Origin: Escherichia phage fEgEco12
Sequence record: PP777464.1
Strand: one strand, 5' to 3'
Length of the DNA: 64,000 nt
Shown: positions 25,950 through 43,899 of the stretch, in pieces
How positions within the stretch are numbered: position 1 is the stretch's first letter
Layout: each line of letters starts with the position of its first letter
Notes under the pieces: generated by a model
The model's database searches: none
What the model was told of the DNA's origin: nothing
What the model saw: only the letters and a program-made list of their open reading frames with translations
Translations under genes and position numbers: made by a program

Positions 25950-26182
25950 AAATCCTTTCACCAAGTGAATACCACGAACTATTAAGTAGTTTAATTCTAA
26001 AATTGTATATAGCAAAGACCACAGATTTACCTGATGAAGAAAAAAATATTCTAATGAGTGAAATCTATGTTAATTCTACCCTAGGGACTAACTATCAAGA
26101 ATGTAATATTAATGATTACATCAAAGAACTAAAAAGGTTTATCCAATGCAAATGCGAATCATTACCGACGAAGAATACCTAA
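25940..26182 (+). CDS. A-family small protein
   Basis: Motif TLGTNYQECN. Confidence 0.6.
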   Translation: MQMKILSPSEYHELLSSLILKLYIAKTTDLPDEEKNILMSEIYVNSTLGTNYQECNINDYIKELKRFIQCKCESLPTKNT

Positions 26183-26397
26183 CAATCATAAATGGACTGT
26201 TTTCGAAGTTATTTGCCATTAACACATCAAAACTTCCAGATACTGATAAAATTATTAAGTTAAATGAAATCTACGTTCAAGCTACTCTAGGAACAAACTA
26301 TCAAGAAGCCAATGTGTATAATTACATTAATACACTCAAAAGGGTAATAAAATTAAAATGCACAGACAGCACAAACAGCCAATACACAAACCCCTAG
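26146..26397 (+). CDS. A-family small protein
   Basis: Motif TLGTNYQEAN; close paralog of previous. Confidence 0.6.
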   Translation: MQMRIITDEEYLTIINGLFSKLFAINTSKLPDTDKIIKLNEIYVQATLGTNYQEANVYNYINTLKRVIKLKCTDSTNSQYTNP

Positions 26398-26597
26398 GAA
26401 CAGCAGAATACATTGAACTAATGGCTGCAAACTTCTCATCCTTTAAGAAACTGATGCAAGAATCAAATAATGATTTAGAATATCATATCAAAAGTTCAGA
26501 TTTAAGATTACTACTCACTCTAGGAACAGACAGTCAGTACAAATTCGTACAGGAGCATATTAGAGCACTTTTAAATGGCATCAGGGATAAACTATGA
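26358..26597 (+). CDS. A-family small protein
   Basis: Motif TLGTDSQYKF; start uncertain. Confidence 0.5.
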   Translation: MHRQHKQPIHKPLGTAEYIELMAANFSSFKKLMQESNNDLEYHIKSSDLRLLLTLGTDSQYKFVQEHIRALLNGIRDKL

Positions 26598-26809
26598 AGG
26601 AAATATCAAATCAAGAGTACTTGGCACTATTCAGGAAGAATAATCACAAATATATGGCACTTGATTCAAGAACTGATATAAGTGAACTTCAGAAAAATCT
26701 TTTGCGTTCAGAGATGATAGTACTGACACTCTTAGGAACACAGCATCAAGAGAGAACTGTTAATTCACACATAGAGATTCTTATGCAGATAGTACAGGAA
26801 AAGATATGA
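26594..26809 (+). CDS. A-family small protein
   Basis: Motif LLGTQHQERT; ATGA junction. Confidence 0.6.
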   Translation: MKEISNQEYLALFRKNNHKYMALDSRTDISELQKNLLRSEMIVLTLLGTQHQERTVNSHIEILMQIVQEKI

Positions 26810-27027
26810 GAATCATAACACAACAAGATATGCTTAAGTTCGCAAGGGTTCATGCATCTGAATTTGATGCTATATTATCAAAAAGTTACAACAACCCTTA
26901 TACACAAGATGTACATTACAGTGAATTATGGATGTATATACTTTTAGGTACAGATCATCAAGAGCAAGCAGTACAGAAGTATTTGAGAGCTTTACGTGAT
27001 GCTACAGCTAATGGAGTACATGTTTAA
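26806..27027 (+). CDS. A-family small protein
   Basis: Motif LLGTDHQEQA; ATGA junction. Confidence 0.6.
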   Translation: MRIITQQDMLKFARVHASEFDAILSKSYNNPYTQDVHYSELWMYILLGTDHQEQAVQKYLRALRDATANGVHV

Positions 27028-27028
27028 T

Positions 27029-27280
27029 ATGAAAGTACTGACAGAACTAGAAATGTATCATAGATTTAATAAGTACTATCATTTACTTAAGCCTATACAG
27101 AGAATTAAATGTCCATTTGAAGAGAAACAGGTTTTAATCTATGAGCACAAGTTCTTTGTATCATTAGGTACAGATCAACAAGAGTACTATTTGACGTTGT
27201 ACTTGATTACATTAATAGATTTCATTCACTATAAAACCACACAATCTAAACAAGCTAATAAAGAGAAATATGAAAACTAA
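27029..27280 (+). CDS. A-family small protein
   Basis: Motif SLGTDQQEYY; start at MKVLTELEM after GGAG. Confidence 0.55.
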   Translation: MKVLTELEMYHRFNKYYHLLKPIQRIKCPFEEKQVLIYEHKFFVSLGTDQQEYYLTLYLITLIDFIHYKTTQSKQANKEKYEN

Positions 27281-27608
27281 TATAAAACTCAAGGTATATA
27301 AATCATTTGCAAGTACATACATCAAATGCCATACATGTAACTCTGTAATGGACTACAAAGGTAAGCCATTTGCACTTACTTATGATAATACAAGAGGTTT
27401 TTATATATCTTTTGCTGATTACAAATATAACATATACGAACACATTGACATTGAAGATTTAAGTACTTTATCTGAAGAGGAATACTTTCAAGAATCATTA
27501 GTATGGGATTTGGAGTTTCCTATGCCATTAGTACATAAGATGATAGTACTAATAAAAGAAACTAAACCTGTACCTAATGGTTATGAAGAACACATTATTG
27601 AGTATTAA
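27270..27608 (+). CDS. B-family protein
   Basis: Motif SEEEYFQESLVWD; near-identical to next gene. Confidence 0.65.
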   Translation: MKTNIKLKVYKSFASTYIKCHTCNSVMDYKGKPFALTYDNTRGFYISFADYKYNIYEHIDIEDLSTLSEEEYFQESLVWDLEFPMPLVHKMIVLIKETKPVPNGYEEHIIEY

Positions 27609-27622
27609 TATATAAGGTAACT

Positions 27623-27964
27623 ATGAAAACTAATATACAACTCAATGTATACAGTTCAGAAGAACATACATATATCAAATGCAGTCTATGTAAAGATGTA
27701 ATGGACTACAAGGGTAAGCCATTCACAATTACTTATGATTCTTATGTTAATGATTTATATATATCATTTCTTAATTACGAAAAGAAAATATACAAGCACG
27801 TTGATATTAAAGATTTAAGTACTTTATCTGAAGAAGAATACTTTCAAGAATCATTAGTATGGGATTTAGAATTTCCTATGCCATTAGTACATAAAATGGT
27901 AGTCCTAATGAAAGAAACTAAACCGGAGTTTAATGGTTATGAAGAACACATCGTTGAGTACTAA
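27623..27964 (+). CDS. B-family protein
   Basis: Motif SEEEYFQESLVWD; tandem duplicate of 27270. Confidence 0.65.
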   Translation: MKTNIQLNVYSSEEHTYIKCSLCKDVMDYKGKPFTITYDSYVNDLYISFLNYEKKIYKHVDIKDLSTLSEEEYFQESLVWDLEFPMPLVHKMVVLMKETKPEFNGYEEHIVEY

Positions 27965-27967
27965 ACA

Positions 27968-28192
27968 ATGAAAATATTATCATACAAAGATTACCGCAAG
28001 CTTCGCGGTATTTTGCGACCAGAAATTCAAAGAATTAATTCTCTTCCTATATCTAATGCAGAATGTTCAGTACTGAAAGATGAGTTAATATTAAAACACA
28101 CAGTAGGAACTAACTATCAAGCTGATAGTGTTCGATATCTAATTTGGGGATTAATATGCATAGTAAAGGAAAAACAAGCTCAAGTACTGTGA
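27968..28192 (+). CDS. A-family small protein (interleaved)
   Basis: Motif TVGTNYQADS. Confidence 0.6.
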   Translation: MKILSYKDYRKLRGILRPEIQRINSLPISNAECSVLKDELILKHTVGTNYQADSVRYLIWGLICIVKEKQAQVL

Positions 28193-28518
28193 CAATCGAA
28201 GTGAATTCTATTAATGCTGGTAATGCAGTAGATAAGTTCTTTATTGCTCAAGGGTACAGGAAAGATATTCATCAATATTGTTCAGTATATGGGGAGTACA
28301 ATAGTACTGAAGATATAATTTATTGGTCAACACATCAAGATTATCTAACTAAAATTGGCATTCCAGATGTTAGTACTTTATCTGAAGAAGAATACTTTCA
28401 GTACAGCTTAGTACATGATTTACCTATACCTTTAGGGTTAATCAAGGGTATACAGGAAGAGGTTCATAAGCTTAAATCCATGAGTAAAGGTACTTTCATT
28501 AGAACAGTGCAATACTAG
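28144..28518 (+). CDS. B-family protein
   Basis: Motif SEEEYFQYSLVHD; start approximate. Confidence 0.55.
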   Translation: MGINMHSKGKTSSSTVTIEVNSINAGNAVDKFFIAQGYRKDIHQYCSVYGEYNSTEDIIYWSTHQDYLTKIGIPDVSTLSEEEYFQYSLVHDLPIPLGLIKGIQEEVHKLKSMSKGTFIRTVQY

Positions 28519-28519
28519 C

Positions 28520-28548
28520 TTGACAGTACTTTTCATTACTGATATAGT
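28520..28548 (+). promoter_or_regulatory. Internal sigma70-like promoter
   Basis: TTGACA, 17 nt, TATAGT. Confidence 0.5.
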
Positions 28549-28577
28549 ACCTGTACGTTAATCATGGGGTAAAAATT

Positions 28578-28823
28578 ATGTTGAATTTTTTAAATTTCCT
28601 TATCGTCTTGTGTATTGTTCTTGGGATTGCACCATTTGTATTGTATTTCATGGATTCAGATGAAATGCAGAAGATGAATTGTACAAGGACAGGACAGAGT
28701 AGAGTAGAGACGATTCTTATGCCTGTTACGGTTATTGTTAACAACATGCCCATTACCAACATGGTCCCTACCCTAACGACAACGTACCAGTACTCTTGTA
28801 CAGACGGAGAGAGGTGGAGATAA
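28578..28823 (+). CDS. small membrane protein (putative)
   Basis: Hydrophobic N-terminus LNFLNFLIVLCIVLGIAPFVLYF; own promoter and RBS. Confidence 0.55.
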   Translation: MLNFLNFLIVLCIVLGIAPFVLYFMDSDEMQKMNCTRTGQSRVETILMPVTVIVNNMPITNMVPTLTTTYQYSCTDGERWR

Positions 28824-29146
28824 TGCGTAAGTTCAATTGTATTGTACGTAAGAATTCATGTTACATTGTAGTAGCTGATTTTAATACAGGTTCTGGATTG
28901 AAGATATTTGAGTACAGAAAATGCAATAATTCTTTTCATTGGAAATTGGGTGCAAGAAAAGCAAAAACAATTTCAGTACCGAATTTATGTTCTATCTCTG
29001 AAGAAGAAGAGTTTCAGTACTTGTTAGTACATGATGATTCTTTAGGATTTACATTAGAAGATATGAAGAAAGTACAACAGCAGATGATTGCACATTGTCA
29101 TCTTCCAAAGAATTTTGTTCAACACGTATGTGAATTCCACATATAA
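28823..29146 (+). CDS. B-family protein
   Basis: Motif SEEEEFQYLLVHD; TAATG junction; strong RBS GGAGAGAGGTGGAGA. Confidence 0.6.
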   Translation: MRKFNCIVRKNSCYIVVADFNTGSGLKIFEYRKCNNSFHWKLGARKAKTISVPNLCSISEEEEFQYLLVHDDSLGFTLEDMKKVQQQMIAHCHLPKNFVQHVCEFHI

Positions 29147-29155
29147 GAGAAGAAT

Positions 29156-29467
29156 ATGAAATTTAATATAGCAAAAACATCGAGTATATGTATTTTTGGT
29201 TATGCAGAAGAGTTAGGTGATATTGACATTCTTTTGTACAAAAAGGATGGTGTTATGCATTTCAAGTACCAGGATGAAGAGGCAGACAATTATCTTTTAC
29301 CTAATTTAGTACACATGCAGGAAGAGGAATTATTCCAGTACAGCTTAATATACGACATTGATATTTGCACGATGCCAGTATTAATTAGTATTCAAAAAGT
29401 GATGCTAGATATGTATGATAAGCTAATACAAGGTATGTCAGGGAGGATCATTGAAATTGACATATAA
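29156..29467 (+). CDS. B-family protein
   Basis: Motif QEEELFQYSLIYD. Confidence 0.6.
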   Translation: MKFNIAKTSSICIFGYAEELGDIDILLYKKDGVMHFKYQDEEADNYLLPNLVHMQEEELFQYSLIYDIDICTMPVLISIQKVMLDMYDKLIQGMSGRIIEIDI

Positions 29468-29495
29468 GAATATACCTAAAGGAGATGCAATATAA

Positions 29496-29747
29496 ATGTA
29501 CAAAAAAATAAACCGTTATTTGTATGCATCAAAGTACAGGGATTTTTGTTTACAAGGGGGAGATGACGATTTTGCTCTGAGGTTATCGGAATTTAATATG
29601 TTATTTTATCTTGGTACAAAAGAACAAGAAGATACAGTACAGAAATTTCTCAATCATCTTGTACAAAAAATTAATATGCAAATTTTGATGCTTAAGTTAC
29701 AGAATGAGATAAATGAATATGAATCCAGAAATAGTTCAGGATCTTAA
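29496..29747 (+). CDS. A-family small protein (divergent)
   Basis: Motif YLGTKEQEDT; RBS AAGGAG. Confidence 0.55.
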   Translation: MYKKINRYLYASKYRDFCLQGGDDDFALRLSEFNMLFYLGTKEQEDTVQKFLNHLVQKINMQILMLKLQNEINEYESRNSSGS

Positions 29748-30123
29748 AAAAGTAATATTTCTTTTGAATACAAGAAGCTCTTTATATAAGGAGTTCAAGG
29801 ATATTAAAACATCGTGTAATATAGATTTTTTTGAAACCATACATGCGGAGTTTCGTGATTTAATTGCAGATGCATTGTTTGAATTTTCCGAGAAATATCA
29901 AGGTACAGTCTTCGGTGTTAAGAATGTTCTTCGTCCAAGTACAGGTACAAGGAAGATTGAGTTATCACATTTTACAATTGGTAACAACGATTTATTCAGT
30001 TATAACCCCAGTACATCTTTATATTTTATTCCTGTTTCAGACAAAAATCATCCTATTCATTACGGATGGATTATATCTTATACAATAAATGGAACGGAGT
30101 ATCCTATTAAATGGCACGATTAG
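29713..30123 (+). CDS. hypothetical protein in array, no family motif
   Basis: ORF track; start approximate. Confidence 0.45.
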   Translation: MNMNPEIVQDLKKVIFLLNTRSSLYKEFKDIKTSCNIDFFETIHAEFRDLIADALFEFSEKYQGTVFGVKNVLRPSTGTRKIELSHFTIGNNDLFSYNPSTSLYFIPVSDKNHPIHYGWIISYTINGTEYPIKWHD

Positions 30124-30262
30124 GGTGTGAAGATTATAATATGAATATATTATTAAGAAATATTAATGCAGATTATTGTGTATGGGTTAAGAATAGAGAT
30201 ATGATGTATTATGATTTTTATTTAGATTGTGCCATTAAGCGTTTTTTAAGAGAAGAACATTA

Positions 30263-30445
30263 ATGAAAACCGTTAATACAAAAGCAATAAATGATTTAAA
30301 TGATTCTTTATTAGTAAGTATCAAGATGTATTACAATATACATTTAAAGGGTGGTATAGATAATTACAATTATTATCTTTCATTAGTTACAATAGAACAT
30401 TTAAATTATATAGATCAGTTATTACATCCAAATCCACCAAATTAA
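30263..30445 (+). CDS. hypothetical small protein
   Basis: ORF track only. Confidence 0.35.
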   Translation: MKTVNTKAINDLNDSLLVSIKMYYNIHLKGGIDNYNYYLSLVTIEHLNYIDQLLHPNPPN

Positions 30446-30456
30446 GGAATACCAAT

Positions 30457-31017
30457 ATGAATGATATTGAGTTATTGGTACATAAGATTTGCACAATATC
30501 GTTAGTGCTGGACAATGCGAATACAGTACAGAGTTCCCTTTTAAGAATTAATAAAGTTGGGAGTAGTTTATATTTGGAAGTAAAAGCTGGTTTTGCAGGA
30601 CAGTACAATGATAAAATCAAAGAAGAAGTTAAGGGAAATGAAGATGCTTTCATTGAGGTTTGTGCAACAGTTGGTTCAAATCCAATTTCAGTATCACCTT
30701 TAATGCGAAATGAAAATTCAGAATTTGATTCCAGTTTTGAAGGTTATTTGTGGTACAATTATGGTGATGATTATTTTATATATCAGAATTCCAAAACGGA
30801 TTATAGTGAAGAAGGTATAAAATTCATTGATCCTTACAATGAAGCAGAAGTATTTCAGACATCCCTAATATACAATACAAATCAAATGAAGTATCTTATG
30901 TTGTTTAGTACAATGCATTTGAATCCATTGAAAGATAATTTAAAATTTTTCATTCGTTTAGAATTAGTTGATATTGCTTATGATCTTTTAATGCAAGGAT
31001 ATAGTTATGAAGTATAA
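30457..31017 (+). CDS. B-family protein
   Basis: Motif EAEVFQTSLIYN; C-terminus LMQGYSYEV shared with 31094 gene. Confidence 0.6.
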   Translation: MNDIELLVHKICTISLVLDNANTVQSSLLRINKVGSSLYLEVKAGFAGQYNDKIKEEVKGNEDAFIEVCATVGSNPISVSPLMRNENSEFDSSFEGYLWYNYGDDYFIYQNSKTDYSEEGIKFIDPYNEAEVFQTSLIYNTNQMKYLMLFSTMHLNPLKDNLKFFIRLELVDIAYDLLMQGYSYEV

Positions 31018-31087
31018 AATGCTTTATACAAAAGATATGATTTATGTTGAATTAGAAGACAATGACGATGTATCCATCAATAGGTAA
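31007..31087 (+). pseudogene. Truncated remnant of an MKYKMLYT-type B-family gene
   Basis: 26 codons MKYKMLYTKDMIYVELEDNDD match the N-terminus of the 31590 gene. Confidence 0.5.
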
Positions 31088-31093
31088 TAATAT

Positions 31094-31600
31094 ATGAATG
31101 AGATAGAATTATTAGCACACAAGATTAGTACAGTAATGCTTATGCTCAAGAATAATCATTCTATGCATAAGTACATTTTTATAGGTGATTTACGCATAGA
31201 AGATAGATATGATAAATTATCGTTTATGTTTAAAGATGAAAGTAATGCAAAAGTTTGTTTTGCAGCATTTGCCCAAGGCAATCCAGAACAAGCATCTCCT
31301 GTTATATATGAAAATAGTGAAGGGTATTTGTGGGTCAACACAAACGATTATTTCTTTTATGTTTTGAAACAAGATGATGAAGTAGAAGCACGAATTGATT
31401 TAATTGATATTAGTACAGATTGTAGTGCTGAATTATTTCAGAAATCGTTATTATACAGTCCTCGTCAAATACATTATCTAAAGTTATTCAGTTCATTGTA
31501 CGCGAATCCTTTAATTAAGGGTTTTAAATTTTATATCAAAATTCCGCACCTTTCAAACGTTTATGATTTATTAATGCAAGGATATAGTTATGAAGTATAA
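31094..31600 (+). CDS. B-family protein
   Basis: Motif SAELFQKSLLYS; C-terminus LMQGYSYEV. Confidence 0.6.
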   Translation: MNEIELLAHKISTVMLMLKNNHSMHKYIFIGDLRIEDRYDKLSFMFKDESNAKVCFAAFAQGNPEQASPVIYENSEGYLWVNTNDYFFYVLKQDDEVEARIDLIDISTDCSAELFQKSLLYSPRQIHYLKLFSSLYANPLIKGFKFYIKIPHLSNVYDLLMQGYSYEV

Positions 31601-31901
31601 AATGCTGTATACATTAACATTAATATATGTAGAATTAGAATCCGATTCAGATGCATGGAATTTGGTTAAAGAGGTCGATACCAATCAATGGTACATGGCA
31701 AATTTAGACGCACATGTTGTTACGGATTATTTTATAGATTTTAATACATTATCTGAAGAAGAATTTTTCCAAATGCAATTGGTGGTTGACATGTACGGAC
31801 ATGACATGGTAACATTAAGAAATATACAGAAAGTCGTTAATGAATTCCAAAGCAAGAAAGATTATGAAGTAGGAGCGTATTATGACATCGACGTACAGTG
31901 A
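31590..31901 (+). CDS. B-family protein
   Basis: Motif SEEEFFQMQLVVD; N-terminus MKYKMLYT. Confidence 0.6.
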   Translation: MKYKMLYTLTLIYVELESDSDAWNLVKEVDTNQWYMANLDAHVVTDYFIDFNTLSEEEFFQMQLVVDMYGHDMVTLRNIQKVVNEFQSKKDYEVGAYYDIDVQ

Positions 31902-31921
31902 AAGCAATGAGTACAATAGTT

Positions 31922-32248
31922 ATGAAGTATAAAATGCTTTATACATTATCAGGGATATATGTAGAATTAGAACCCGATTATCCAGATGGATGGAATTTTA
32001 TTAAACGCTCCGAAAGAAATACATGGCACATGGCACATTTGGATAATGACGTAATATTAGACAATTTTGTGGATTTTAATACATTATCAGAAGAAGAATT
32101 CTTCCAAATGCAATGTGTGCTTGACACAAAAGGATTTGATGTGCTATTATTAAGGAATATACAGAAAGCTGTTAACGAATTAATATCCAATGACGAGTTA
32201 GGCAAAGTGAGGCTGTTCCATGATCTCGAAGTACCGTACCAGCAATGA
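31922..32248 (+). CDS. B-family protein
   Basis: Motif SEEEFFQMQCVLD; paralog of 31590; start at MKYKMLYT. Confidence 0.6.
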   Translation: MKYKMLYTLSGIYVELEPDYPDGWNFIKRSERNTWHMAHLDNDVILDNFVDFNTLSEEEFFQMQCVLDTKGFDVLLLRNIQKAVNELISNDELGKVRLFHDLEVPYQQ

Positions 32249-32789
32249 AATTCAGTACACCTACGCTAATGCAATCCTAATGGGACAAAAGTTAGCTTGT
32301 ATTGTTGCAGCCTTATATAATGTACAGAAAGCAGCACATAATAAAAAACCATATACAAGAATCATTAACGCATTCATGGGGTTTAAACCATCTGATTTTG
32401 ATTCACATATTGCGTGCACAAGTTATTTTGACAAACGATTCAATACACCTGATACCCCAAATGCCCGTAGTGTTATTAGTCTTTTACAGTTTAATCCAAC
32501 ACCAGTTATATCAAAGAATGATTTGGATTACACATGGTACAATTCAAATCAAGATTCATTTTATTCTAATGATCAATCGATTGAATATAATAAAATTAAA
32601 TCAGAGGAAGCATTTTTTCAGGAATCATTATTTACACATGAACGTTCTTTGTTTTATAGTGTTATGTTGAGTACAGTATACAATAGTCCATTACACAAGA
32701 ATAACAAAATTAATTTCAGTTTTTGTGCTTATGCGATTGATGGTGTTTATGAGTGCTTAATGGAGGTATTGAGTTATGAAGCTGAATAA
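32220..32789 (+). CDS. B-family protein
   Basis: Motif SEEAFFQESLFTH. Confidence 0.6.
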   Translation: MISKYRTSNEIQYTYANAILMGQKLACIVAALYNVQKAAHNKKPYTRIINAFMGFKPSDFDSHIACTSYFDKRFNTPDTPNARSVISLLQFNPTPVISKNDLDYTWYNSNQDSFYSNDQSIEYNKIKSEEAFFQESLFTHERSLFYSVMLSTVYNSPLHKNNKINFSFCAYAIDGVYECLMEVLSYEAE

Positions 32790-33117
32790 TACATTTGATA
32801 TTAATAAGTTAAGAGAATGGTTTAATAATATTGAAATTGACGCCATTCCTTATCATACATATGAACAAAGCGATTTACAAAGTATTGATATCAGAGAGTT
32901 GTACAAATATTATCAGAGTGCATTAGAGATGCATAAGTTATTTTTGAGTACAAATTTCATCCTAAATTACAATTTTGAGGAATTTAATAATTATAATTTA
33001 GTACAGAAATATGTAGTAGCAAAGTACATGTACAATCAAGGTATAAAAGGTTGCATCGAATTCAATACCGTTCTTATTTTAGTTGAGGTAATTTTATGCA
33101 CCGCATGTCTGATTTAG
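32776..33117 (+). CDS. hypothetical protein in array, no family motif
   Basis: ORF track. Confidence 0.4.
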   Translation: MKLNNTFDINKLREWFNNIEIDAIPYHTYEQSDLQSIDIRELYKYYQSALEMHKLFLSTNFILNYNFEEFNNYNLVQKYVVAKYMYNQGIKGCIEFNTVLILVEVILCTACLI

Positions 33118-33593
33118 AGTTCAGTTTAGATGCAGCCTTTAAATTTGTTCACAAAATAGAAACAATATATCGTACATTATGTGCAATAACATCAGTATCA
33201 AAAGAGTTTGATGTTGGTGAAAGGTATCAGGTGTGGAATAATTCATTTTATAATAAAGAACATTCTGCGACGGCATTTTATATTTTAGCATTTAATCCCA
33301 GCAATTGTTACCCAGAGAAGCATGAACGTTATCCAAATGACGACATGTGGTTTGAGTACAAAGAAGATGCTGATATGTCGTCAATTGTAGTTCCTGATGA
33401 TTTTAATGCACAAGATTTAACAGAAGAGTGGTGGTTCCAGCAGAATTTAGTACATGATGATATTGATTTATTTTTCTATATTGCATTTAAAATGCTTTAT
33501 CACAACAATATAGTTAAAGAAAGTTTATCGTTTTCATGTCTATATATTGATGATTTGTACAATGAAATTCAAATAAACATGCCTGTATCGTAA
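33096..33593 (+). CDS. B-family protein
   Basis: Motif TEEWWFQQNLVHD. Confidence 0.6.
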   Translation: MHRMSDLEFSLDAAFKFVHKIETIYRTLCAITSVSKEFDVGERYQVWNNSFYNKEHSATAFYILAFNPSNCYPEKHERYPNDDMWFEYKEDADMSSIVVPDDFNAQDLTEEWWFQQNLVHDDIDLFFYIAFKMLYHNNIVKESLSFSCLYIDDLYNEIQINMPVS

Positions 33594-33611
33594 GATATGG
33601 GCTTTTTTTGT

Positions 33612-33640
33612 TTGACACAAGTACAAATGCATGGTACAAT
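33612..33640 (+). promoter_or_regulatory. Internal sigma70-like promoter
   Basis: TTGACA, 17 nt, TACAAT; RBS AAGGAG before 33668. Confidence 0.55.
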
Positions 33641-33667
33641 GTGTAATCATTTTTTAAGGAGATACCT

Positions 33668-34216
33668 ATGGAAAATTTTAAAATACCAGATGATTTCAAT
33701 TCAGTACAAGAGATGGTACACAAGGTTCATTATATTTTTCATGAATTAATTATTGCCAATTCATCCGGTATGCAAATTGAGTTAAAGGATATTGATAGAG
33801 AAGAAGTATTTCTGGCTTCCCCAAATTCAATCATTCCTTTTTATGGACAAGATCGTTTATGGTTCATGAGAGATACCCCAATTGACAAATACAAAATACA
33901 AACAAAATCAGAGTTTTATTCTATTTTTGAATATCTTAATATTACATTACAAACACAAGATATAAATGCAATAAGTGCCATGAGTGCTGAGGAATATTTT
34001 CAGTACAGTACATTGCATAGTCCAGAAGAAATCTTTGTTGTTATGCTCGTTGCAAAATTGAGTACAGTTGATTTTGGGACGTACCCAAATAAATCATTCA
34101 AGATTATTATTCCTGCATTCGTCGATCTTTATGATTTCATTGTGCACAAGAAAGAAAGTACAGTGTACGATATGTATCGTTCAAATATCAGTATGATTAC
34201 AGGGGAATTAAAATGA
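33668..34216 (+). CDS. B-family protein
   Basis: Motif SAEEYFQYSTLHS; own promoter and strong RBS. Confidence 0.65.
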   Translation: MENFKIPDDFNSVQEMVHKVHYIFHELIIANSSGMQIELKDIDREEVFLASPNSIIPFYGQDRLWFMRDTPIDKYKIQTKSEFYSIFEYLNITLQTQDINAISAMSAEEYFQYSTLHSPEEIFVVMLVAKLSTVDFGTYPNKSFKIIIPAFVDLYDFIVHKKESTVYDMYRSNISMITGELK

Positions 34217-34821
34217 ACATAGATCAATTAATGAAGTACAGTACAAGTGTAATTCCAGTGCTAAGTAAAGCATTAGATGCATTCAATGCTAAGTACCCTG
34301 AAGGTTCAGAGTTAAATATTCCTTTTACCACAGAAGGGATTGTTGATACGTACATTGTAAACATCAGTAGTACAGGTATTGTTTTGAAGCAAAAGTACGG
34401 CGAAAGTGAATATTATGGATTGAAGCTGGATAATATTTCAGGAGAGAAGACACCTTATGAGTTTTGGGTTCCGAATAACATTGAGTCATGGAAAACAAAT
34501 ATTAATAAGAGAGACGAAAGAAATTTACCTCTTGTACAAAATAATGAAAAAAGAATTGACGTATTTTATTATTACAGTACAGCCCAGTTTCCAGAAGAGA
34601 TTTATTTAAATTCAGAGGTTCATGAAGATATTGAATCATTTTTCTTTCAGTTATCATTGGTACAGGATATCATGCCTGTGCAAATGTTCAGGGATGAAAT
34701 AAATTTAGCGAAAGAGATTTCGGATATGTTACCTGAATTTAGTGTTCTTTATGGTAGTAGAGCTTTACCTGAAAATGTTTACAAAGAATTTATTTCCATT
34801 GTTAAAGGGTTGAATATATAA
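34213..34821 (+). CDS. B-family protein
   Basis: Motif IESFFFQLSLVQD; ATGA junction. Confidence 0.6.
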   Translation: MNIDQLMKYSTSVIPVLSKALDAFNAKYPEGSELNIPFTTEGIVDTYIVNISSTGIVLKQKYGESEYYGLKLDNISGEKTPYEFWVPNNIESWKTNINKRDERNLPLVQNNEKRIDVFYYYSTAQFPEEIYLNSEVHEDIESFFFQLSLVQDIMPVQMFRDEINLAKEISDMLPEFSVLYGSRALPENVYKEFISIVKGLNI

Positions 34822-34822
34822 T

Positions 34823-35017
34823 ATGACCGCCTATGATATCAAACAAAGGCATACGAAGTTTGATTTGTTCACATACCAATTCCACAATGATATAGTGAAT
34901 TTTAACATCAATGCGTCCTTGCATCCTACATCACAAGATGATTTTGACAACAGAGTGCTTAACATCGTGGTGCTTTTGTGTTATAATCATTTCAGTGAAT
35001 ATTTTAACACAAGATAA
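34823..35017 (+). CDS. hypothetical small protein
   Basis: ORF track only; may be leader of next gene. Confidence 0.3.
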   Translation: MTAYDIKQRHTKFDLFTYQFHNDIVNFNINASLHPTSQDDFDNRVLNIVVLLCYNHFSEYFNTR

Positions 35018-35030
35018 GGTTGAGGCACAC

Positions 35031-35549
35031 ATGTATCAGGCCAAGTACAATACATCATATGCATTTGCACACAACATTTTGAAGATCATCAAAGCGTTAG
35101 AGGGTGGATTGCTTAGTCATAAGTACACCAGAGTAGGTGACAATTGGTTCAGAAATGATGATGAGTTCAGAAGTCATAAGATTGTTTACAGCAATAATTA
35201 CAGTGCCAATTACCTTCAGGATGTTGCTATGTGCTTCGAATACGTGTTACAGTTCAGGGGTTCCATCAGTCCTGATCTAAGAGAACACATGTACATTCGA
35301 TACCTACCAATGCTTAAGGATGAGAAAACAATATTCAATTCAGTACACCACAGAGTACGAGAGAGATCATTCAGGGATATTTTAGAAGATGAAGCTGCCT
35401 ATTTTCAGCAATCATTGATTGATGCTCCTGATGTGTTACAGATGCAGAATTTGTATAATGTATTAGATGCGAACATCGATACGGATATCTTTTTTTCCTT
35501 AAGTGATTATGAAACATTTTTGGAAGATTTAAAGGAAATAGGATTATGA
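35031..35549 (+). CDS. B-family protein
   Basis: Motif DEAAYFQQSLIDA; ATG after AGGTTGAGG. Confidence 0.55.
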   Translation: MYQAKYNTSYAFAHNILKIIKALEGGLLSHKYTRVGDNWFRNDDEFRSHKIVYSNNYSANYLQDVAMCFEYVLQFRGSISPDLREHMYIRYLPMLKDEKTIFNSVHHRVRERSFRDILEDEAAYFQQSLIDAPDVLQMQNLYNVLDANIDTDIFFSLSDYETFLEDLKEIGL

Positions 35550-35890
35550 GTAGATTTTCAGTTTATATAGTAAACGTCAGTAAAGATGGTAGTTTAATTG
35601 AATTTGATGTAGTTGATAACAATGATAATTCATATGGTATTAAGGTACAGGACAATGATGTACAGTTCAGTACAAGGACAAATTTTGAGAATCCAGTCCA
35701 AGTTCCGAATTTCATAGAAGATGAAGCTGCACGATTCCAACACGAAACGGCCTTTGATAATTTAGCGATGCATATTATTATGCAACAAAGTTTAGTTCAA
35801 TTGCTTCAGGTATTCAGACAAAATATATATGTACATGAAGTGTCGATTAATGGCATTCAAAGTTCCGTTTTGTTCGGTACAAATATGTAA
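35546..35890 (+). CDS. B-family protein (divergent)
   Basis: Motif DEAARFQHETAFD; ATGA junction. Confidence 0.55.
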   Translation: MSRFSVYIVNVSKDGSLIEFDVVDNNDNSYGIKVQDNDVQFSTRTNFENPVQVPNFIEDEAARFQHETAFDNLAMHIIMQQSLVQLLQVFRQNIYVHEVSINGIQSSVLFGTNM

Positions 35891-35900
35891 GGAAAGTACA

Positions 35901-36455
35901 ATGAGTTCAATGAGTTTATTAGATACATTAGAAAAAGACAGAAGTGCCATTAAGAGATTAAAAAATCTTGTCCAGAGCATTGCGAACAACGCTGAGAAGT
36001 TCAGTGACAATCTTAGTATAGGTGATATAACCAGTACAGGAATAAAATCCCTGAAGTCAGATTTATTAATTCATAAGGAAGATAAATTATTATTTGTATT
36101 GAGTTCAGATTTAATGGTTGCAAGTAATGGTTTCAATTCGATATCAACACAAGATGGTAGCACAGGATTATATCTATCACAGGGTGTCCAGACGAACGAA
36201 CAAAAGTGTTTTAGTTCAGGAGTACAGAATCCCTTTAAGTTCAGTACAGAACAAGCTACAGAGCTTTTAGATGCTTCAGAAGAGATGTTATTTCAGTACA
36301 AAACGGTTCATACAGATTTTGAATTACGATGCATGTACGCTGTTAAGCATTATGTTCAGGAGTTCGAGAATTTAAGTTATCTTTTAGTTCGAACGAATAC
36401 AAAGAACATTGGTGCATTAGAAGATTACATTTCAAAAGTTGTTAAAGGGTGCTAA
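35901..36455 (+). CDS. B-family protein
   Basis: Motif SEEMLFQYKTVHT; ATG after RBS AAGGAAAG. Confidence 0.6.
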   Translation: MSSMSLLDTLEKDRSAIKRLKNLVQSIANNAEKFSDNLSIGDITSTGIKSLKSDLLIHKEDKLLFVLSSDLMVASNGFNSISTQDGSTGLYLSQGVQTNEQKCFSSGVQNPFKFSTEQATELLDASEEMLFQYKTVHTDFELRCMYAVKHYVQEFENLSYLLVRTNTKNIGALEDYISKVVKGC

Positions 36456-36464
36456 AGGGTGCTG

Positions 36465-36626
36465 ATGAAAGAGTTATTTGAAGAACAGTTCGATACATAT
36501 GTGGATAATATTCTTTATTCTAGTCGTGCTAGTCAACGAGGAAATCGTGCTTACAACATAGATTACCTATTAACGGTGCTGAGTTCACAGTACACCTACG
36601 CTGTGCAGAGGACATATTATGGATAA
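36465..36626 (+). CDS. small hypothetical protein (53 aa)
   Basis: Below track cutoff; open frame; weak RBS. Confidence 0.35.
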   Translation: MKELFEEQFDTYVDNILYSSRASQRGNRAYNIDYLLTVLSSQYTYAVQRTYYG

Positions 36627-36822
36627 TTTTAGAGATGTTGCAAAGGAGAAGTTCAAGTGCAGTTTAGATTACGGTTTAAATGATTTTCTTACATGCACAA
36701 TGTACAGGAATGATGATTATGAGCAATCCGTAATTTCGTTGCACAGATATTTCGAAATAATTTACGCAAGATATCTTAGAAGGTTAGATGGAATAGGGGA
36801 TTGGAGTTATGATTACGTTTGA
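36619..36822 (+). CDS. hypothetical small protein
   Basis: ORF track. Confidence 0.4.
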   Translation: MDNFRDVAKEKFKCSLDYGLNDFLTCTMYRNDDYEQSVISLHRYFEIIYARYLRRLDGIGDWSYDYV

Positions 36823-37024
36823 AGAGCCGGAAGTGGTATATTGCTATAGTGTGAAAGGTTTTGAATACATGATGGATTCGATTTTGAAGGATACATATTT
36901 GGTTCAGATTGCAGTTGCAGATGATGCAGTACAACGAGTATTGAATATATACGAGAAGACGAGTCGAAGGCTTTGTGCGATGAAAAGGATTGAAGAAATC
37001 AAGCTTTCTAGGCTGAATAAATAG
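36809..37024 (+). CDS. hypothetical small protein
   Basis: ORF track; RBS GGGGA. Confidence 0.4.
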   Translation: MITFEEPEVVYCYSVKGFEYMMDSILKDTYLVQIAVADDAVQRVLNIYEKTSRRLCAMKRIEEIKLSRLNK

Positions 37025-37220
37025 AGACGTTTCGTTTTCACAGGCCGCAGGGGGGGGTCAAAAAAATTTTCGCTGAAAAACATGTTAAGGTATATGTTTA
37101 ATATAAAGTTTTAAAATGTGTTCACAGAGTACAGTTCATGTTTCCTGAAACAAAAAATACCCCGCCGCAAACGTTCTCCTTATATTGGAGTTTACCTTAT
37201 TAATTACAGTAGAGATTATT

Positions 37221-37598
37221 ATGGAAATAAAATATAAAGAATTTTGTATAGGGACATGGATGTACACGGGTGAGTTGATTACGTGTTGTAATTTGTACAA
37301 AGGTGATTTAAACTACACAAGGGGCAAGGTTATAAAGTTCTGGAATTCACAATTTTATTTAATGGATCTTGGTACTGGATTTAGTTGTAAAGCAACCGAT
37401 ATGCTGGACTATACCTTAATGGATGATGCTGCACTATTTCAGGAGTCATTAGTATTTGACAAGAAGTACATCTGTACATTAGAAGAGATTGTTGAAATCC
37501 AGCGTAGAATTAAATGCATTCACAGGGAATGTATAGATAAATGGTGTAAAACTGGTGAAACTAATTTTAGTAATCATTTCAATCTAGGGGAAGAGTGA
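37221..37598 (+). CDS. B-family protein (CNLxKGD subfamily)
   Basis: Motif DDAALFQESLVFDKKY; first of four tandem subfamily members. Confidence 0.6.
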   Translation: MEIKYKEFCIGTWMYTGELITCCNLYKGDLNYTRGKVIKFWNSQFYLMDLGTGFSCKATDMLDYTLMDDAALFQESLVFDKKYICTLEEIVEIQRRIKCIHRECIDKWCKTGETNFSNHFNLGEE

Positions 37599-37954
37599 TG
37601 GAATTTGATTTTTTAATATCAGTACATTCTTTTAAGAACAGTTTTCAGTACTTTTGTAATTTAAACAAAGGTGATTTGATGCACAGTGCAAATGAGTATA
37701 TTCATTTTACGGATGGTAAATTCACATTCATTGATTACAATTCATTACAGTATCCACATCAGGATATGCCGGATTATACAGTAATGGATGCCGCTGAACT
37801 ATTTCAGGAGTCATTAGTATTTGATAAGAAGTACTTGTGTACATTTGAAGAAGTTATTGCAATACAAAATGAAATGAAAGAGTATGACTCTTTGAATAAA
37901 GGCAATGTCAGTATTAATCAAGAATACAAATTCAATATAGGAATACCAGAATGA
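37595..37954 (+). CDS. B-family protein (CNLxKGD subfamily)
   Basis: Motif DAAELFQESLVFDKKY; ATGA junction. Confidence 0.6.
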   Translation: MMEFDFLISVHSFKNSFQYFCNLNKGDLMHSANEYIHFTDGKFTFIDYNSLQYPHQDMPDYTVMDAAELFQESLVFDKKYLCTFEEVIAIQNEMKEYDSLNKGNVSINQEYKFNIGIPE

Positions 37955-38316
37955 CATATGATTATTCAATGTACGTTTGTAAGTCCAGAACGGGGTGGGA
38001 TTTGTGCTGTAATCTTGTCAAGGGTGATTCGGAACATGAGTTGAGTTTATATATTCAGTACTCGGATTTGTGTTTTAATTTCATTGATGTATTACATGAT
38101 GACTTCGACTATAACTCTGAAAGTATTACAGATTATACAGTACTGGATGATGTTGAACTATTTCAAGCTTCTTTGGTGTTTGACAAGAATAAGTACTCAT
38201 GTACAATAGAAGATATGATTTTTATACAAAATGAAATGAAGAGATATGTTAAAGAAAACACCTTTGATACATCTACACCAACAACAAGTAATTATTATTT
38301 CAATACAGGTGAGTAA
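37951..38316 (+). CDS. B-family protein (CNLxKGD subfamily)
   Basis: Motif DDVELFQASLVFDKNKY; ATGA junction. Confidence 0.6.
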   Translation: MTYDYSMYVCKSRTGWDLCCNLVKGDSEHELSLYIQYSDLCFNFIDVLHDDFDYNSESITDYTVLDDVELFQASLVFDKNKYSCTIEDMIFIQNEMKRYVKENTFDTSTPTTSNYYFNTGE

Positions 38317-38317
38317 T

Positions 38318-38662
38318 ATGGAATATGATTTTTCTATGTTTATACCTAAGATTAGTACTTCACTGGAAGTGTATTGCAATCTTAACAAAGGTGATTATGA
38401 ACACAAAATGGATCAGTACATTAAATTTAATGGTTCTTACTTTAGCTTCATTGATTATCAGGCCAAAGGAACAGTTGTAGAAAATATGAAAGACTATACA
38501 ACTGTACAGGGTGAGGCTGAAATATTTCAAGAGTCATTAATATTTGACAAGAAGTACTTGTGTACACTAGAGGAAGTTATTGAACTCCAACAGAAGATGA
38601 AAGAATATAGAAGAATCTGTATAGAGACTGATTCCAAAGATAGGTATCGTTTTAAGCTATGA
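38318..38662 (+). CDS. B-family protein (CNLxKGD subfamily)
   Basis: Motif GEAEIFQESLIFDKKY. Confidence 0.6.
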   Translation: MEYDFSMFIPKISTSLEVYCNLNKGDYEHKMDQYIKFNGSYFSFIDYQAKGTVVENMKDYTTVQGEAEIFQESLIFDKKYLCTLEEVIELQQKMKEYRRICIETDSKDRYRFKL

Positions 38663-38844
38663 ATAAAAAAGAACAAATGGAATCATTCATGAATACAATA
38701 CTTCGACGATTCGTAATTGATATTAGACATAACAACAGCATTAGGAATGACATGTACTTCGGTACATATGATATTAGTGAATTGTATATAGCTAATATTC
38801 ACATGGTTTACCGAGATTATATCAAGACACAACACAGGAGTTGA
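38659..38844 (+). CDS. hypothetical small protein
   Basis: ORF track; ATGA junction. Confidence 0.4.
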   Translation: MNKKEQMESFMNTILRRFVIDIRHNNSIRNDMYFGTYDISELYIANIHMVYRDYIKTQHRS

Positions 38845-38845
38845 T

Positions 38846-39316
38846 ATGAGTTTTGCAAGAGCATTAGAAATTGCTAAGTTAATTGATTTATGTAAAAAGG
38901 AAATAGTACTCAATCAACTCAATGGGTATCTATTCAAGGAAGGTAAAGCTTATTGTCGAATGATATACGATGACAGTAGTGAGTACATTCACATGTACGA
39001 AGAAAACTTAGATTCTTCTGAAACAACACTCACTGGGTGTGATGTTAATCTGGAAGATAATTACATGTACTTCTGTCGTGATGCTGATATTTTAATACAA
39101 TATACTGACATTATAACTGGTGCAGCAGAGAAACATCTTCCGTATTCAGTACTGGATAATGACTGGGGAAGTGAAGAGTTCTACTTCCAGCAGAATACTA
39201 TCTACGAGGAATATGTGCTTGACAAGCTTGTCATTCTGTGGTACTTTAATAATACAGATTGTCCTAGCTTCTATTTGGACTTGGATCTACTACGAGTTAT
39301 TAAAGAGGATATATGA
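38846..39316 (+). CDS. B-family protein (GPW-SEEYYFQ subfamily)
   Basis: Motif GSEEFYFQQNTIYE. Confidence 0.6.
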   Translation: MSFARALEIAKLIDLCKKEIVLNQLNGYLFKEGKAYCRMIYDDSSEYIHMYEENLDSSETTLTGCDVNLEDNYMYFCRDADILIQYTDIITGAAEKHLPYSVLDNDWGSEEFYFQQNTIYEEYVLDKLVILWYFNNTDCPSFYLDLDLLRVIKEDI

Positions 39317-39753
39317 GTTTAGCAAGTGCACTTAAACTGGCACACAAAATACATCACTTCCACGATAACATAAAAAGTGGTTTCTATGGTGATAAAGTAA
39401 GTGCATTTGGTAATGAGTATTATCTATCAGGTATAAAGACATACTCTGATGATATTTTACTTATGGGCCATGATAAAGACAATACTATACAGTACTCTTC
39501 ATGTAGTCAATATACTAGTTTTTTTGTATATATTCCAGGTACTAAGATTACTTTTGACACATCAAATACACCTGTTGACTTCGGGGTACTTGATGGGCCG
39601 TGGGGTACTGAAGAGTATTACTTCCAACAGAGTCTTATTTTTAACCAAGAAATGCTTGATTCCTTGGTTGTTTTGTGGTACTTTAAGGAATTGAATTTTG
39701 AACCCTTCTTCCTTGACTGGGGAGCATGTGAATATTTAAGTACAGGGGATTAG
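39313..39753 (+). CDS. B-family protein (GPW-SEEYYFQ subfamily)
   Basis: Motif GTEEYYFQQSLIFN. Confidence 0.6.
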   Translation: MSLASALKLAHKIHHFHDNIKSGFYGDKVSAFGNEYYLSGIKTYSDDILLMGHDKDNTIQYSSCSQYTSFFVYIPGTKITFDTSNTPVDFGVLDGPWGTEEYYFQQSLIFNQEMLDSLVVLWYFKELNFEPFFLDWGACEYLSTGD

Positions 39754-39755
39754 TA

Positions 39756-40247
39756 ATGTCATTAGAAAGTGCATTGAAAGAAGCAAAGAAGATTCATGAG
39801 TACATGATTATGGTACAAGAAGGTTCAGTGCCTGGTGTGTATAAAACATCTGATACTGAATTTTTTGTAAAAGACCGCGACGATTATGATGAGTCAGAGA
39901 TATGTGCAGAAACGTTAGTACTACACACTGATACGGGTGATACTGATGACTGTGAATATCATATGTACAATCAGTACATTAGTTATTGTAGAGATGAAGA
40001 TATTATAATTTACAGTCCTGATTACGATGATTATGACACAATCATTCCGTATTCAGTACTGGAAGGTCCGTGGGATAGTGAAGAATATTACTTCCAGAAC
40101 AGTACTGTGTACAATGAAGAAGAATTAGATGTTATTGTAATTATGTGGTACTTTAAAAGTATTGGTTCTGATAGTTTCTATTTCGATTATGAATACGTAG
40201 AGAATACTGTAGGGGAAGATAATGTCATTACAAAGTGCTCTGGATAA
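39756..40247 (+). CDS. B-family protein (GPW-SEEYYFQ subfamily)
   Basis: Motif DSEEYYFQNSTVYN. Confidence 0.6.
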   Translation: MSLESALKEAKKIHEYMIMVQEGSVPGVYKTSDTEFFVKDRDDYDESEICAETLVLHTDTGDTDDCEYHMYNQYISYCRDEDIIIYSPDYDDYDTIIPYSVLEGPWDSEEYYFQNSTVYNEEELDVIVIMWYFKSIGSDSFYFDYEYVENTVGEDNVITKCSG

Positions 40248-40665
40248 AGCAAAAGAACTACAGGTATATATTGAAGATATCAAGGCTGGGAAGTTCGAAG
40301 AAGTATACAAAGCCGAGAATGGTAACTACTACAAGGATAGTGATTTTACCACAACTACAGTTATTCTTGGGCTGAATTCCAAAAGTCCCGCAGATTTTTC
40401 ACAATACAATCCAGATGCAGAATTTATCAGTTATGCTTATGGTGGTGAAATCCGTTTTTATAATCGCAGCAGACCTTTAAAATTGAACTTTGAAGTACTG
40501 AAAGGTCCGTGGGATAGTGAAGAGTATTACTTTCAGAATAGTACTTTGTATGATGATGAAGTACTAGATACTTTAGTTATTATGTGGTACTTTAAAAGTA
40601 TTGATAGTACAAGATTTTATTTGGATTATGAATATGTACGTGAAGCATATAAGGGCAAACGATGA
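40222..40665 (+). CDS. B-family protein (GPW-SEEYYFQ subfamily)
   Basis: Motif DSEEYYFQNSTLYD. Confidence 0.6.
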   Translation: MSLQSALDKAKELQVYIEDIKAGKFEEVYKAENGNYYKDSDFTTTTVILGLNSKSPADFSQYNPDAEFISYAYGGEIRFYNRSRPLKLNFEVLKGPWDSEEYYFQNSTLYDDEVLDTLVIMWYFKSIDSTRFYLDYEYVREAYKGKR

Positions 40666-40976
40666 AATTCTTATACAGTATTCAGTACATTCCTGGTACA
40701 ATTAGTTTAATGTATTTCTTCGATCATGATAATTTCCAGCTCCTTGCCATTAGAAGATGTAATGAATCTTTAATGATTGAATATCTTCACGATTGTGATT
40801 ATATTCCTGACTTCCTTGAATGCGATTACAGAGATGATCATGAATCATTTATTTTTCAGGAATCACTTGTATGGGATAAGAGAATTAATTTTTATGCTTT
40901 ACTTGAGATACAAAAACAAGTGAAGTACTACTGGGATTACTTAATTACCCAAAAATATATAGAGATTGAAATATAA
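40662..40976 (+). CDS. B-family protein
   Basis: Motif DHESFIFQESLVWD; ATGA junction. Confidence 0.6.
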   Translation: MKFLYSIQYIPGTISLMYFFDHDNFQLLAIRRCNESLMIEYLHDCDYIPDFLECDYRDDHESFIFQESLVWDKRINFYALLEIQKQVKYYWDYLITQKYIEIEI

Positions 40977-41419
40977 TGTACGAAAGTGTTCTTAAGCACG
41001 CTGAAGAATTAGTTAATATAGTAAAGTTCTTTCAAAATAATGTAAAGTACTTAGACTATAAAGGGGCATATATTAGTACTATAAGTGTTGGAACAGATAT
41101 ACTAGGATTAGGTAATGAATATAAGTACGAGTCACATGATTATGATTTGGAATTCAAGTACTTCGTATGGGATTCTGGAACTTTCTATTCTATAGAGGAA
41201 GATGGCAAATATTTTGAATTCACAGAAGAAGAAGTACTATTTTTAAATTCAGAAGATGCTTACTTCCAGTACAGTACTATATACCCAAATGGGGCGTTAA
41301 GAGCTTTAGTAGTTTTTAATGCATTTCTGAAAGAGAACTTTAATAATTCTATATTCATTGATTTAGATTATGTATATGAACTAAATCAGGTAATATATAT
41401 GGAGTCCAGAGAAAAATGA
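40976..41419 (+). CDS. B-family protein
   Basis: Motif SEDAYFQYSTIYP. Confidence 0.6.
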   Translation: MYESVLKHAEELVNIVKFFQNNVKYLDYKGAYISTISVGTDILGLGNEYKYESHDYDLEFKYFVWDSGTFYSIEEDGKYFEFTEEEVLFLNSEDAYFQYSTIYPNGALRALVVFNAFLKENFNNSIFIDLDYVYELNQVIYMESREK

Positions 41420-43894: not shown

Positions 43895-43899
43895 ATGCC

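Follow-up and report, generated by a model that had tools for sequence, protein, structure and literature searches.

Introduction

Jumbo-phage genomes are thought to have grown in part by tandem gene duplication, phage 121Q being the cited example. Here we analyse a large tandem gene array of this kind in Escherichia phage fEgEco12, within a 64,000-nt stretch of sequence record PP777464.1 ("the window", to which coordinates refer), and we consider it likely that an old array is being reshuffled by recombination between relatives rather than extended by fresh duplication, its products putatively serving an accessory host-interaction or anti-defence role. The array of 121Q, which belongs to the same genus and lies in the same genomic neighbourhood as that of the window, was noted in one sentence by Hua et al. 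2017 (mBio, PMC5646251), a statement repeated in a 2026 jumbo-phage review (PMC13282480), and the CBB genome paper lists 22 paralogous open reading frames (ORFs) (PMC5259590). Beyond the one sentence of 2017 our literature searches returned no account of the family, and no analysis of its families, age or polymorphism. The 121Q array was reported without coordinates, families, divergence estimates or a comparison of isolates, and its copies were said to be 'very similar' (PMC5646251), whereas the groups that we examined in the window are 31-73% identical. Unlike in that account, turnover is traced here to allele replacement, allele stacking and repeat-mediated deletion.

Under the birth-and-death model of Nei and Rooney, multigene families hold long-lived paralogs, gain and lose genes, leave truncated remnants and undergo little homogenisation. 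Tailed phages evolve in a mosaic, modular fashion, and phages of the T4 superfamily carry plastic or 'hyperplastic' accessory regions. The MGF360/505 genes of African swine fever virus (ASFV) and the 'genomic accordions' of poxviruses are terminal multigene families of varying copy number for which a role in host interaction is presumed.

Results

A megablast search with positions 27000-41000 returned 35 matching phage records, all from Escherichia or Salmonella jumbo phages of the genus Asteriusvirus (the 121Q/PBECO4 group), the closest genome being WPEC3 with 97.9% identity across the whole 14-kb query. Gene-by-gene maps were made for ten relatives of the window (the gene-mapped isolates), and arrays were compared with themselves in a set of 15, consisting of the window, 11 isolate loci (some covering part of the array only) and three metagenomic contigs, with pairs of at least 100 nt being scored. 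Synonymous divergence (dS) and the ratio of non-synonymous to synonymous divergence (dN/dS) were estimated by the Nei-Gojobori method (NG86), for which dS above ~1 is saturated.

The region is a single unbroken run of small plus-strand ORFs, mostly overlapping or abutting. A preliminary description of this DNA had placed an array at 27270-40665; the array is real, and all the ORFs named there exist, but it is far larger and extends from 21091 to ~56262. About 28 tandem genes of 65-93 amino acids (aa) with the motif [LIV]GT[ND][YF]Q make up the LGTNYQ family at 21091-27280, with further sites at 27968-28192, 29496-29747 and 42370-42757. This LGTNYQ array may be the array of '>30 genes' that Hua et al. 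gave for 121Q. The second family, EE-x-FQ, is defined by the motif [ST]-x-[DE]-E-x-[FYL]-F-Q-x-S, which is present in at least 40 of 69 ORFs from 27270 to ~56262 (~29 kb). Its genes go on for ~16 kb past 40665 (40662-56262), with relatives of the C quartet (see below) at 43900 and 44249 and of the D quartet at 45664 and 46898. The similarities between paralogs are far above chance (blastp E 1e-16 to 1e-58).

These paralogs are ancient, and the content of the array is still changing between close isolates with 97-98% identity elsewhere. Overall, paralog pairs have dS of 0.35-1.9 and dN/dS of 0.3-0.8, and a stretch of at least 100 nt with more than 88% DNA identity to another part of its own array was found in none of the 15, the best pairs reaching 84-88% over 104-342 nt. 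The closest pair among the groups examined is E1 (27270..27608, plus strand, 112 aa, EE-x-FQ family) and E2 (27623..27964, plus strand, 113 aa), which had been called near-identical neighbours. They are adjacent paralogs, yet their proteins share only 72.6% identity (blastp E 3e-58) and their DNA 82%, at a dS of 0.35; within the DNA, the 5' 126 nt agree at 79% and the 3' 211 nt at 86% of positions, one 68-nt core reaching 94%. The four genes C1-C4 (37221-37598, 37598-37954, 37951-38316 and 38318-38662, plus strand; CNLxKGD...FQESLVFDKKY) do share the CNLxKGD motif, together with [LI]FQ[EA]SL[VI]FDK(N)KY, as do D1-D4 (38846-39316, 39313-39753, 39756-40247 and 40222-40665, plus strand) their GPW-SEEYYFQ-type motif in the forms GPWDSEEYYFQ, GPWGTEEYYFQ or NDWGSEEFYFQ. 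The shared motifs thus stand as first described, but the recent duplication read into them is not supported, since pairwise protein identity is 39-47% with dS of 0.76-1.7 for C1-C4 and 31-42% with dS of 1.3-1.9 for D1-D4.

The D quartet is also stable: the order D1-D4 is kept in each of the ten gene-mapped relatives, every gene best matching its own position, and C1-C3 have positional orthologs in all of them except Ec-M-J, which is without C3. In SP27, 121Q, PBECO4 and G17 the best match lies at the same position for D1-D4, C1-C3, A3, B2 and E2. Because most of the C and D genes keep their positions and best match these even in 121Q, the quartets predate the sampled diversity of the genus. 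This bears on the model put forward at the outset, in which recent in-situ tandem duplication is followed by quick divergence under relaxed or positive selection and then by decay, a 26-codon ORF (see below) being the internal-deletion leftover of a gene beginning MKYKMLYT. In its favour, neighbouring paralogs are mutual best matches, the repeat period is of unit length (353-365 nt), paralog dN/dS lies above that of most orthologs, and truncated genes exist. We nevertheless regard it as unlikely, as the youngest pair already has dS of 0.35, no pair in the 15 arrays reaches 88% DNA identity, the C and D quartets with their saturated divergence are older than the radiation of the genus, and the structure of the 26-codon ORF points elsewhere.

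Gene turnover itself, which the preliminary description had proposed to check by comparing isolates, is borne out: related genomes differ in copies and positions, and truncated remnants exist. The maps of the ten relatives differ at E1, E3, E4, L28, an extra L29-like gene, A2, B1, A3, C3, C4 plus s4 versus a D-type gene, and G2. Several isolates are without E3, several without E4 and several without the small LGT gene at 27968. E2 has an ortholog in every isolate examined, and E1 is an extra copy in a minority, found at 96% identity or more in only 4 of 33 matching records (EC.P1, WPEC3, Ec-M-J and Turkey3). In Ecwhy_1, SP27, 121Q, PBECO4 and G17 the place of C4 and the 61-aa ORF s4 (38659-38844) is taken by a D-type gene of 163 aa. 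At 29480..29493 (plus strand), the window and WPEC3 are without a small LGT-like gene of ~166 nt that the other eight gene-mapped isolates have (window, ..CCTAA|AGGAGATGCAAT..., versus WPEC5, ..CCTAA-[58-aa ORF]-AGGAGATACAAT..), while one more LGT gene sits between 24835 and 25061 in WPEC3, WPEC5 and Ecwhy_1, giving three copies of the 24835 type versus two in the window. Some of these differences distinguish genomes that share 97-100% identity elsewhere, and the flux is therefore current.

Differences of this kind might also arise as assembly or annotation artefacts of repetitive DNA, with the array in truth static. One record, CMSTMSU (MH494197), is marked UNVERIFIED_ORG, its ORFs being broken by many frameshifts: many array ORFs are split in two, each piece 96-100% identical to intact window genes. 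The split ORFs suggest sequencing indels rather than real pseudogenes, and the record was not used as evidence of decay. The metagenomic contigs, too, break at ~28 kb within the array region. Against an artefact, individual variants turn up repeatedly among isolates that were sequenced independently and come from different countries, paralogs below 88% identity are too divergent for assembly collapse, and the breakpoints are precise and biologically sensible (hybrid genes, repeat-mediated deletions); we find this explanation scarcely credible.

Divergence between orthologs is strikingly uneven along the array. For the window compared with SP27, dS is 0.012 for D4 and 0.02 for G1 and G3, versus 1.0-1.4 for A1, B2, F2 and F3 (F2, 1.4); compared with WPEC3, it is mostly below 0.1, except for A3 (0.27) and C1 (0.37). 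Jumps of up to ~100-fold between neighbouring genes argue for allelic replacement by recombination. A hot spot of such replacement is A3 (32220..32789, plus strand), a distant A-type gene of 189 aa that is 100% identical in WPEC5 and Ecwhy_1, 75% in WPEC3 and 65% in Ec-M-J, versus 96-100% for the neighbouring genes. Allelic divergence at one locus (dS up to 1.4) is as large as 'paralog' divergence inside one genome. For orthologs with dS high enough to be informative, dN/dS mostly falls at 0.1-0.5, and the genes thus appear to be kept by purifying selection.

The A/B region upstream of A3 contains joints that bear on mechanism. A1 (30457..31017, plus strand, 186 aa, ending LMQGYSYEV-stop) is 100% identical in Ecwhy_1 and 91% in ph0011, whereas the A genes at this position in SP27, 121Q and slurp01 share just 53-56% identity with it. 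Its end lies in a 34-nt junction block (J1, 30988..31021, plus strand) that comprises the A-gene end, an AAGGA ribosome-binding site and the B-gene start. An identical second copy (J2, 31571..31604, plus strand) lies between A2 (31094..31600, plus strand), a second A-type gene of 168 aa, and B1 (31590..31901, plus strand, 103 aa, MKYKMLYT...), which is restricted to the window clade and to Ecwhy_1. The block is identical in SP27, 121Q, PBECO4 and G17, though their A genes differ by about half. 121Q has a single B gene, and B2 (31898..32248, plus strand, 108-116 aa according to the start codon used) is its ortholog, at 79% identity; just 23 nt of the junction block are kept upstream of B2. B1 and B2 (31590/31907) share 58% protein identity, with dS of 0.56. 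The junction LMQGYSYEV-stop/MKYKMLYT had been counted three times; MKYKMLYT does occur thrice (starts at 31007, 31590 and 31922), but LMQGYSYEV-stop is found at just two of these sites, with its end at 31017 and 31600. The gene before the third MKYKMLYT terminates in ...DIDVQ-stop, and what that site has in common with the other two is limited to ATAGTTATGAAGTATAAAATGCT (31916-31938).

A2 is 42% identical to A1 (dS ~1.0), 49% to the SP27 A gene and ~95% to the second A gene of slurp01 and TH47. It is absent from Ecwhy_1, ph0011, SP27, 121Q, PBECO4, G17 and UE-S1, and is always found together with the 26-codon ORF at 31007..31087 (plus strand), the stump, which is present as first described and which we interpret as the scar of a recombination joint. 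None of the genomes read has A2 as its sole A allele, TH47 and slurp01 both having the stump module. The first part of the stump (31007-31070) corresponds to the 5' 64 nt of a B gene, with ~89% identity to the B allele of SP27, PBECO4 and G17 (...PDMIYVELEDDDD|GWN...) and ~75% to B1 of the window (manual count). Its 23-nt tail (31071-31093, TATCCATCAATAGGTAATAATAT) is homologous to the sequence immediately 5' of the SP27 A gene: TATCCATCAATAGGTAA in the tail matches TATCCATCGATAGGTAA upstream of the SP27 gene, and the tail plus A2 start aligns with the SP27 upstream sequence as TATCCATCGATAGGTAAATT ATGAATGAGATAAAG. The stump would thus be a novel joint of the 5' 64 nt of B with ~20 nt from upstream of A, followed by A2. 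Because the tail resembles A-gene upstream sequence rather than the end of a B gene, the deletion remnant originally proposed is contradicted, which counts against the in-situ duplication model. As its halves match the B 5' end and A upstream sequence, the stump is best read as the joint of an out-of-register recombination that added a divergent second A allele.

The joint is contiguous in 11 records, six close ones and five of PBECO4 type at 92% identity. In gene arrangement TH47 agrees with these (an A gene of SP27 type, 71 nt of gap, A2 and B), and ECO103 4-12-1, whose blast pattern equals that of TH47, probably does so too; in all, the stump with the 168-aa A2 gene is found in about 13 of ~35 Asteriusvirus genomes. 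In slurp01 the module consists, in order, of an A gene (99% SP27-type), the stump, A2 (95% identical to that of the window) and a B gene (100% SP27-type). There the stump is nearly equal to the 5' end of the resident B gene, the main differences being an insertion of one A and a 6-nt deletion at the joint, but the two A genes that flank it are only 48% identical. This argues that A2 had already diverged by the time the joint arose, rather than being copied then from the resident A gene, which again speaks against in-situ duplication.

The stump could alternatively encode a functional 26-aa micro-protein kept by selection, a possibility that the preliminary description had raised against its own reading. 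It does retain the start context of the B gene (AAGGA ribosome-binding site, ATG overlapping the A1 stop), and in six close isolates the reading frame is unbroken, with no more than 1-2 single-nucleotide polymorphisms. The changes in close isolates comprise one that is non-synonymous (D to V) versus two synonymous, a pattern that shows no constraint. Moreover, the slurp01 insertion frameshifts the stump to MKYKMMYTPRYDLC-stop, which marks it as a decaying scar; it is absent from most genomes, has been cleanly lost in Ecwhy_1 and is without the invariant FQ helix of the family. A micro-protein is accordingly very improbable. A second stump of this kind is found in a module absent from the window: in G17, slurp01 and 121Q a C2 gene breaks off after its first 27 codons and passes into unrelated sequence, behind which lie an additional family gene of 122-123 aa and then an intact C2 (C2 5' stump at 15483-15644 of the G17 locus and 15137-15361 of the 121Q locus). 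It appears to be a scar of the same type, independent of that at 31007.

E1 also looks like a stacked foreign allele, since the DNA of its 3' part agrees at 92% with the 121Q allele and at only 86% with the adjacent E2. In WPEC5, Ecwhy_1, ph0011, SP27, 121Q, PBECO4 and G17 a sole gene occupies the E2 position, 75-98% identical to E2. WPEC3 E1 differs from that of the window by five amino acids, all in the last 18 codons and all matching E2. The 3' end of WPEC3 E1 thus reads as a gene-conversion tract from E2-type sequence, which is short and the only one that we saw.

Loss of single units is visible at short repeats. In Ecwhy_1, A1 (100% identical) is joined directly to B1 (98%) over one junction block whose left side is of A1 type and whose right side is of B1 type, matching the product expected if recombination between J1 and J2 had deleted the stump and A2. 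In Ec-M-J, a hybrid gene begins like C3 (ATGACAT) and continues as C4, with a unit-length deletion of 365 nt, and would be the product of an unequal crossover.

Taken together, these data fit a scheme in which co-infecting relatives or sister genomes serve as recombination partners, rather than one of duplication in situ followed by decay. In-register exchange would swap one gene for a highly divergent allele and yield a mosaic. Out-of-register or illegitimate exchange would stack a divergent allele beside the resident one, leaving a joint scar such as the 31007-31087 stump, so that a new 'paralog' would be born already old; the failure to find a pair above 88% DNA identity in the 15 arrays is why 'births' look like such stacking. 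Finally, recombination between short conserved repeats (the 34-nt A/B junction, the C3 and C4 5' ends) would remove exactly one unit. For the stump, the simplest reading is an unequal illegitimate recombination between two genomes with different A alleles ('allele stacking'), after which, in the lineage of the window, the first A gene would have been exchanged for the A1 allele and the B region would have become B1 plus B2. The C and D quartets, by comparison, may stem from ancient in-situ duplication.

Several points weigh against this scheme. A2 could be an ancient in-situ duplicate whose stump was kept B-like by later conversion. Direction and timing rest on parsimony over ~15 sampled arrays, and NG86 values of dS above ~1 are saturated. 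Furthermore, boundary linkers had to be rejected as general recombination sites, as conservation is limited to some of the junctions: positions up to 30 nt from a gene start versus gene interiors showed identities of 0.75/0.74 and 0.74/0.73, and of 0.80/0.71 in the A region, giving no conserved linkers at every gene boundary. The A/B junction is thus a special case.

The EE-x-FQ proteins are mostly acidic (median isoelectric point 5.0). Pfam scans of family members from the window gave nothing above the cut-off, and a PDB search detected no fold relative of the EE-x-FQ proteins; PHROG matches (phrog_13866, 15629, 9317, 19795 and 33987; E 1e-9 to 1e-62) are all labelled 'unknown function'. A profile search of 5.8 billion proteins returned 44 matches, essentially all from Asteriusvirus-like contigs, and an exhaustive hidden Markov model (HMM) search returned 146 cluster representatives, nearly all of 50-170 aa and with the SEEE[FY]FQxSL motif where checked. 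A 3493-aa repeat protein from the HMM search is without the EE-x-FQ motif and was discarded as a false positive. One match, P0026, is an 87-aa protein 92% identical to E2, filed under Actinomadura adrarensis as 'DUF2283 domain-containing'; it is probably phage contamination of that assembly, and the Pfam scans of window family members did not reproduce the DUF2283 name. In AlphaFold2 models the invariant Phe-Gln is predicted to sit in a short helix inside an alpha/beta fold: the E2 model (predicted local distance difference test (pLDDT) 86, predicted template modelling score 0.80) has five strands, two helices and a terminal strand, with the motif as the first helix, and the D3 model (pLDDT 82) has an extra N-terminal helix relative to that of E2.

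In the Ec-M-J record, direct terminal repeats are annotated at 1-21525, and window position 21000 aligns to ~21533 there, placing the start of the array ~100 nt past the terminal-repeat boundary. GC content drops from ~0.38 to ~0.31 at this point. Window positions 1-20900, which correspond to the annotated terminal repeat and lie upstream of the array, contain in their intergenic gaps at least 30 copies of a 50-95-nt cassette co-oriented with the array (e.g. 1634-1711, 13587-13664, 16859-16936 and 20051-20128). The cassette is made up of AAAAAGTACTTGCAA or TTGACA, a 17-nt spacer, TATAATGTTTTACATC and then a GGGGAGAAatgaTTCTCCCC hairpin, and its copies resemble strong early promoters of the sigma-70 type that carry a 5' stem-loop. 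Distinct from this main cassette is a 93-nt element with GGGATTGACTCCGGTCAGTCCCTTTGCTATTATATA, in three copies that are 65-90% identical (13476-13568, 16745-16837 and 19497-19589), in which promoter-like sequence overlaps an inverted repeat.

Inside the array, sigma-70 promoter matches are not more numerous than expected from shuffled sequence, and good consensus matches in gaps are few. A rare intergenic gap at 33581..33640 (plus strand) holds a terminator-like hairpin followed by a sigma-70-like promoter (TTGACA-17-TACAAT, extended TG; a consensus match only), and a terminator is annotated at the equivalent place in G17 and UE-S1. Another rare gap, at 28520-28548, holds a near-consensus sigma-70 promoter with an extended -10 TG. 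By their motifs, the two gaps may be operon boundaries inside the array. In the related phage PA5oct, terminal-repeat genes are expressed early (PMC7318152). The terminal-repeat neighbourhood, the upstream promoter cassettes, the promoter and terminator matches in gaps and the pattern of diversification lead us to infer that the proteins act as accessory host-interaction or anti-defence factors, probably expressed early, whose diversity would be kept by selection from variable hosts.

Discussion

The array has already been noted in the literature, and its dynamics are a well-documented case of ordinary phage mosaicism that leaves current concepts unchallenged. They fit three of the four defining features of birth-and-death evolution, as well as general phage mosaicism. 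As under birth-and-death, paralogs of the window group by position and not by genome, with little concerted homogenisation; E1, E3, E4, A2, B1, C3, C4 and others are present or absent between isolates; and truncated remnants occur (the 31007-31087 stump, frameshifted in slurp01, and the C2 5' stump in G17 and 121Q). In contrast to that model, the cases of 'birth' that could be resolved appear to bring in a divergent allele from another genome, by import or stacking, and not to duplicate a resident gene, and the setting is a viral population with frequent recombination between genomes rather than a cellular lineage. Concerted evolution by gene conversion does not describe the array, in which paralogs are 31-73% identical and a single short conversion tract (the WPEC3 E1 3' end) was found.

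The array resembles the plastic regions of the T4 superfamily in that one-strand blocks of small ORFs vary between near-identical relatives and identity shifts sharply near gene boundaries, but its variable genes belong to two very large tandem paralogous families and are not unrelated ORFans. Like the ASFV and poxvirus arrays, it adjoins a terminal repeat, differs in copy number between isolates and has a presumed role in host interaction. Poxvirus accordion copies, however, are near-identical and quickly expand and contract, whereas the best pairs here reach 84-88% DNA identity with a minimum dS of 0.35; no near-identical tandem copies, as recent adaptive amplification would produce, were seen in the 15 arrays.

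The point of interest is the large EE-x-FQ protein family without a detectable fold relative. It is possible, though on balance doubtful, that these proteins, with at least 40 per genome over ~29 kb and only in RaK2-like jumbo phages, form a diversified library of binders of host targets or anti-defence binders, renewed by cassette exchange and allele stacking; if true, the array would be the phage counterpart of immune-evasion gene arrays. In any case, the copies of the array are old, and recombination between relatives, through allele swaps, allele stacking and repeat-mediated loss, accounts for most of its present-day change, so that copy-number differences between therapeutic or environmental Asteriusvirus isolates need a different reading. 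A family that is this large, novel in fold and fast in shuffling is a reasonable place to seek host-range or anti-defence functions.

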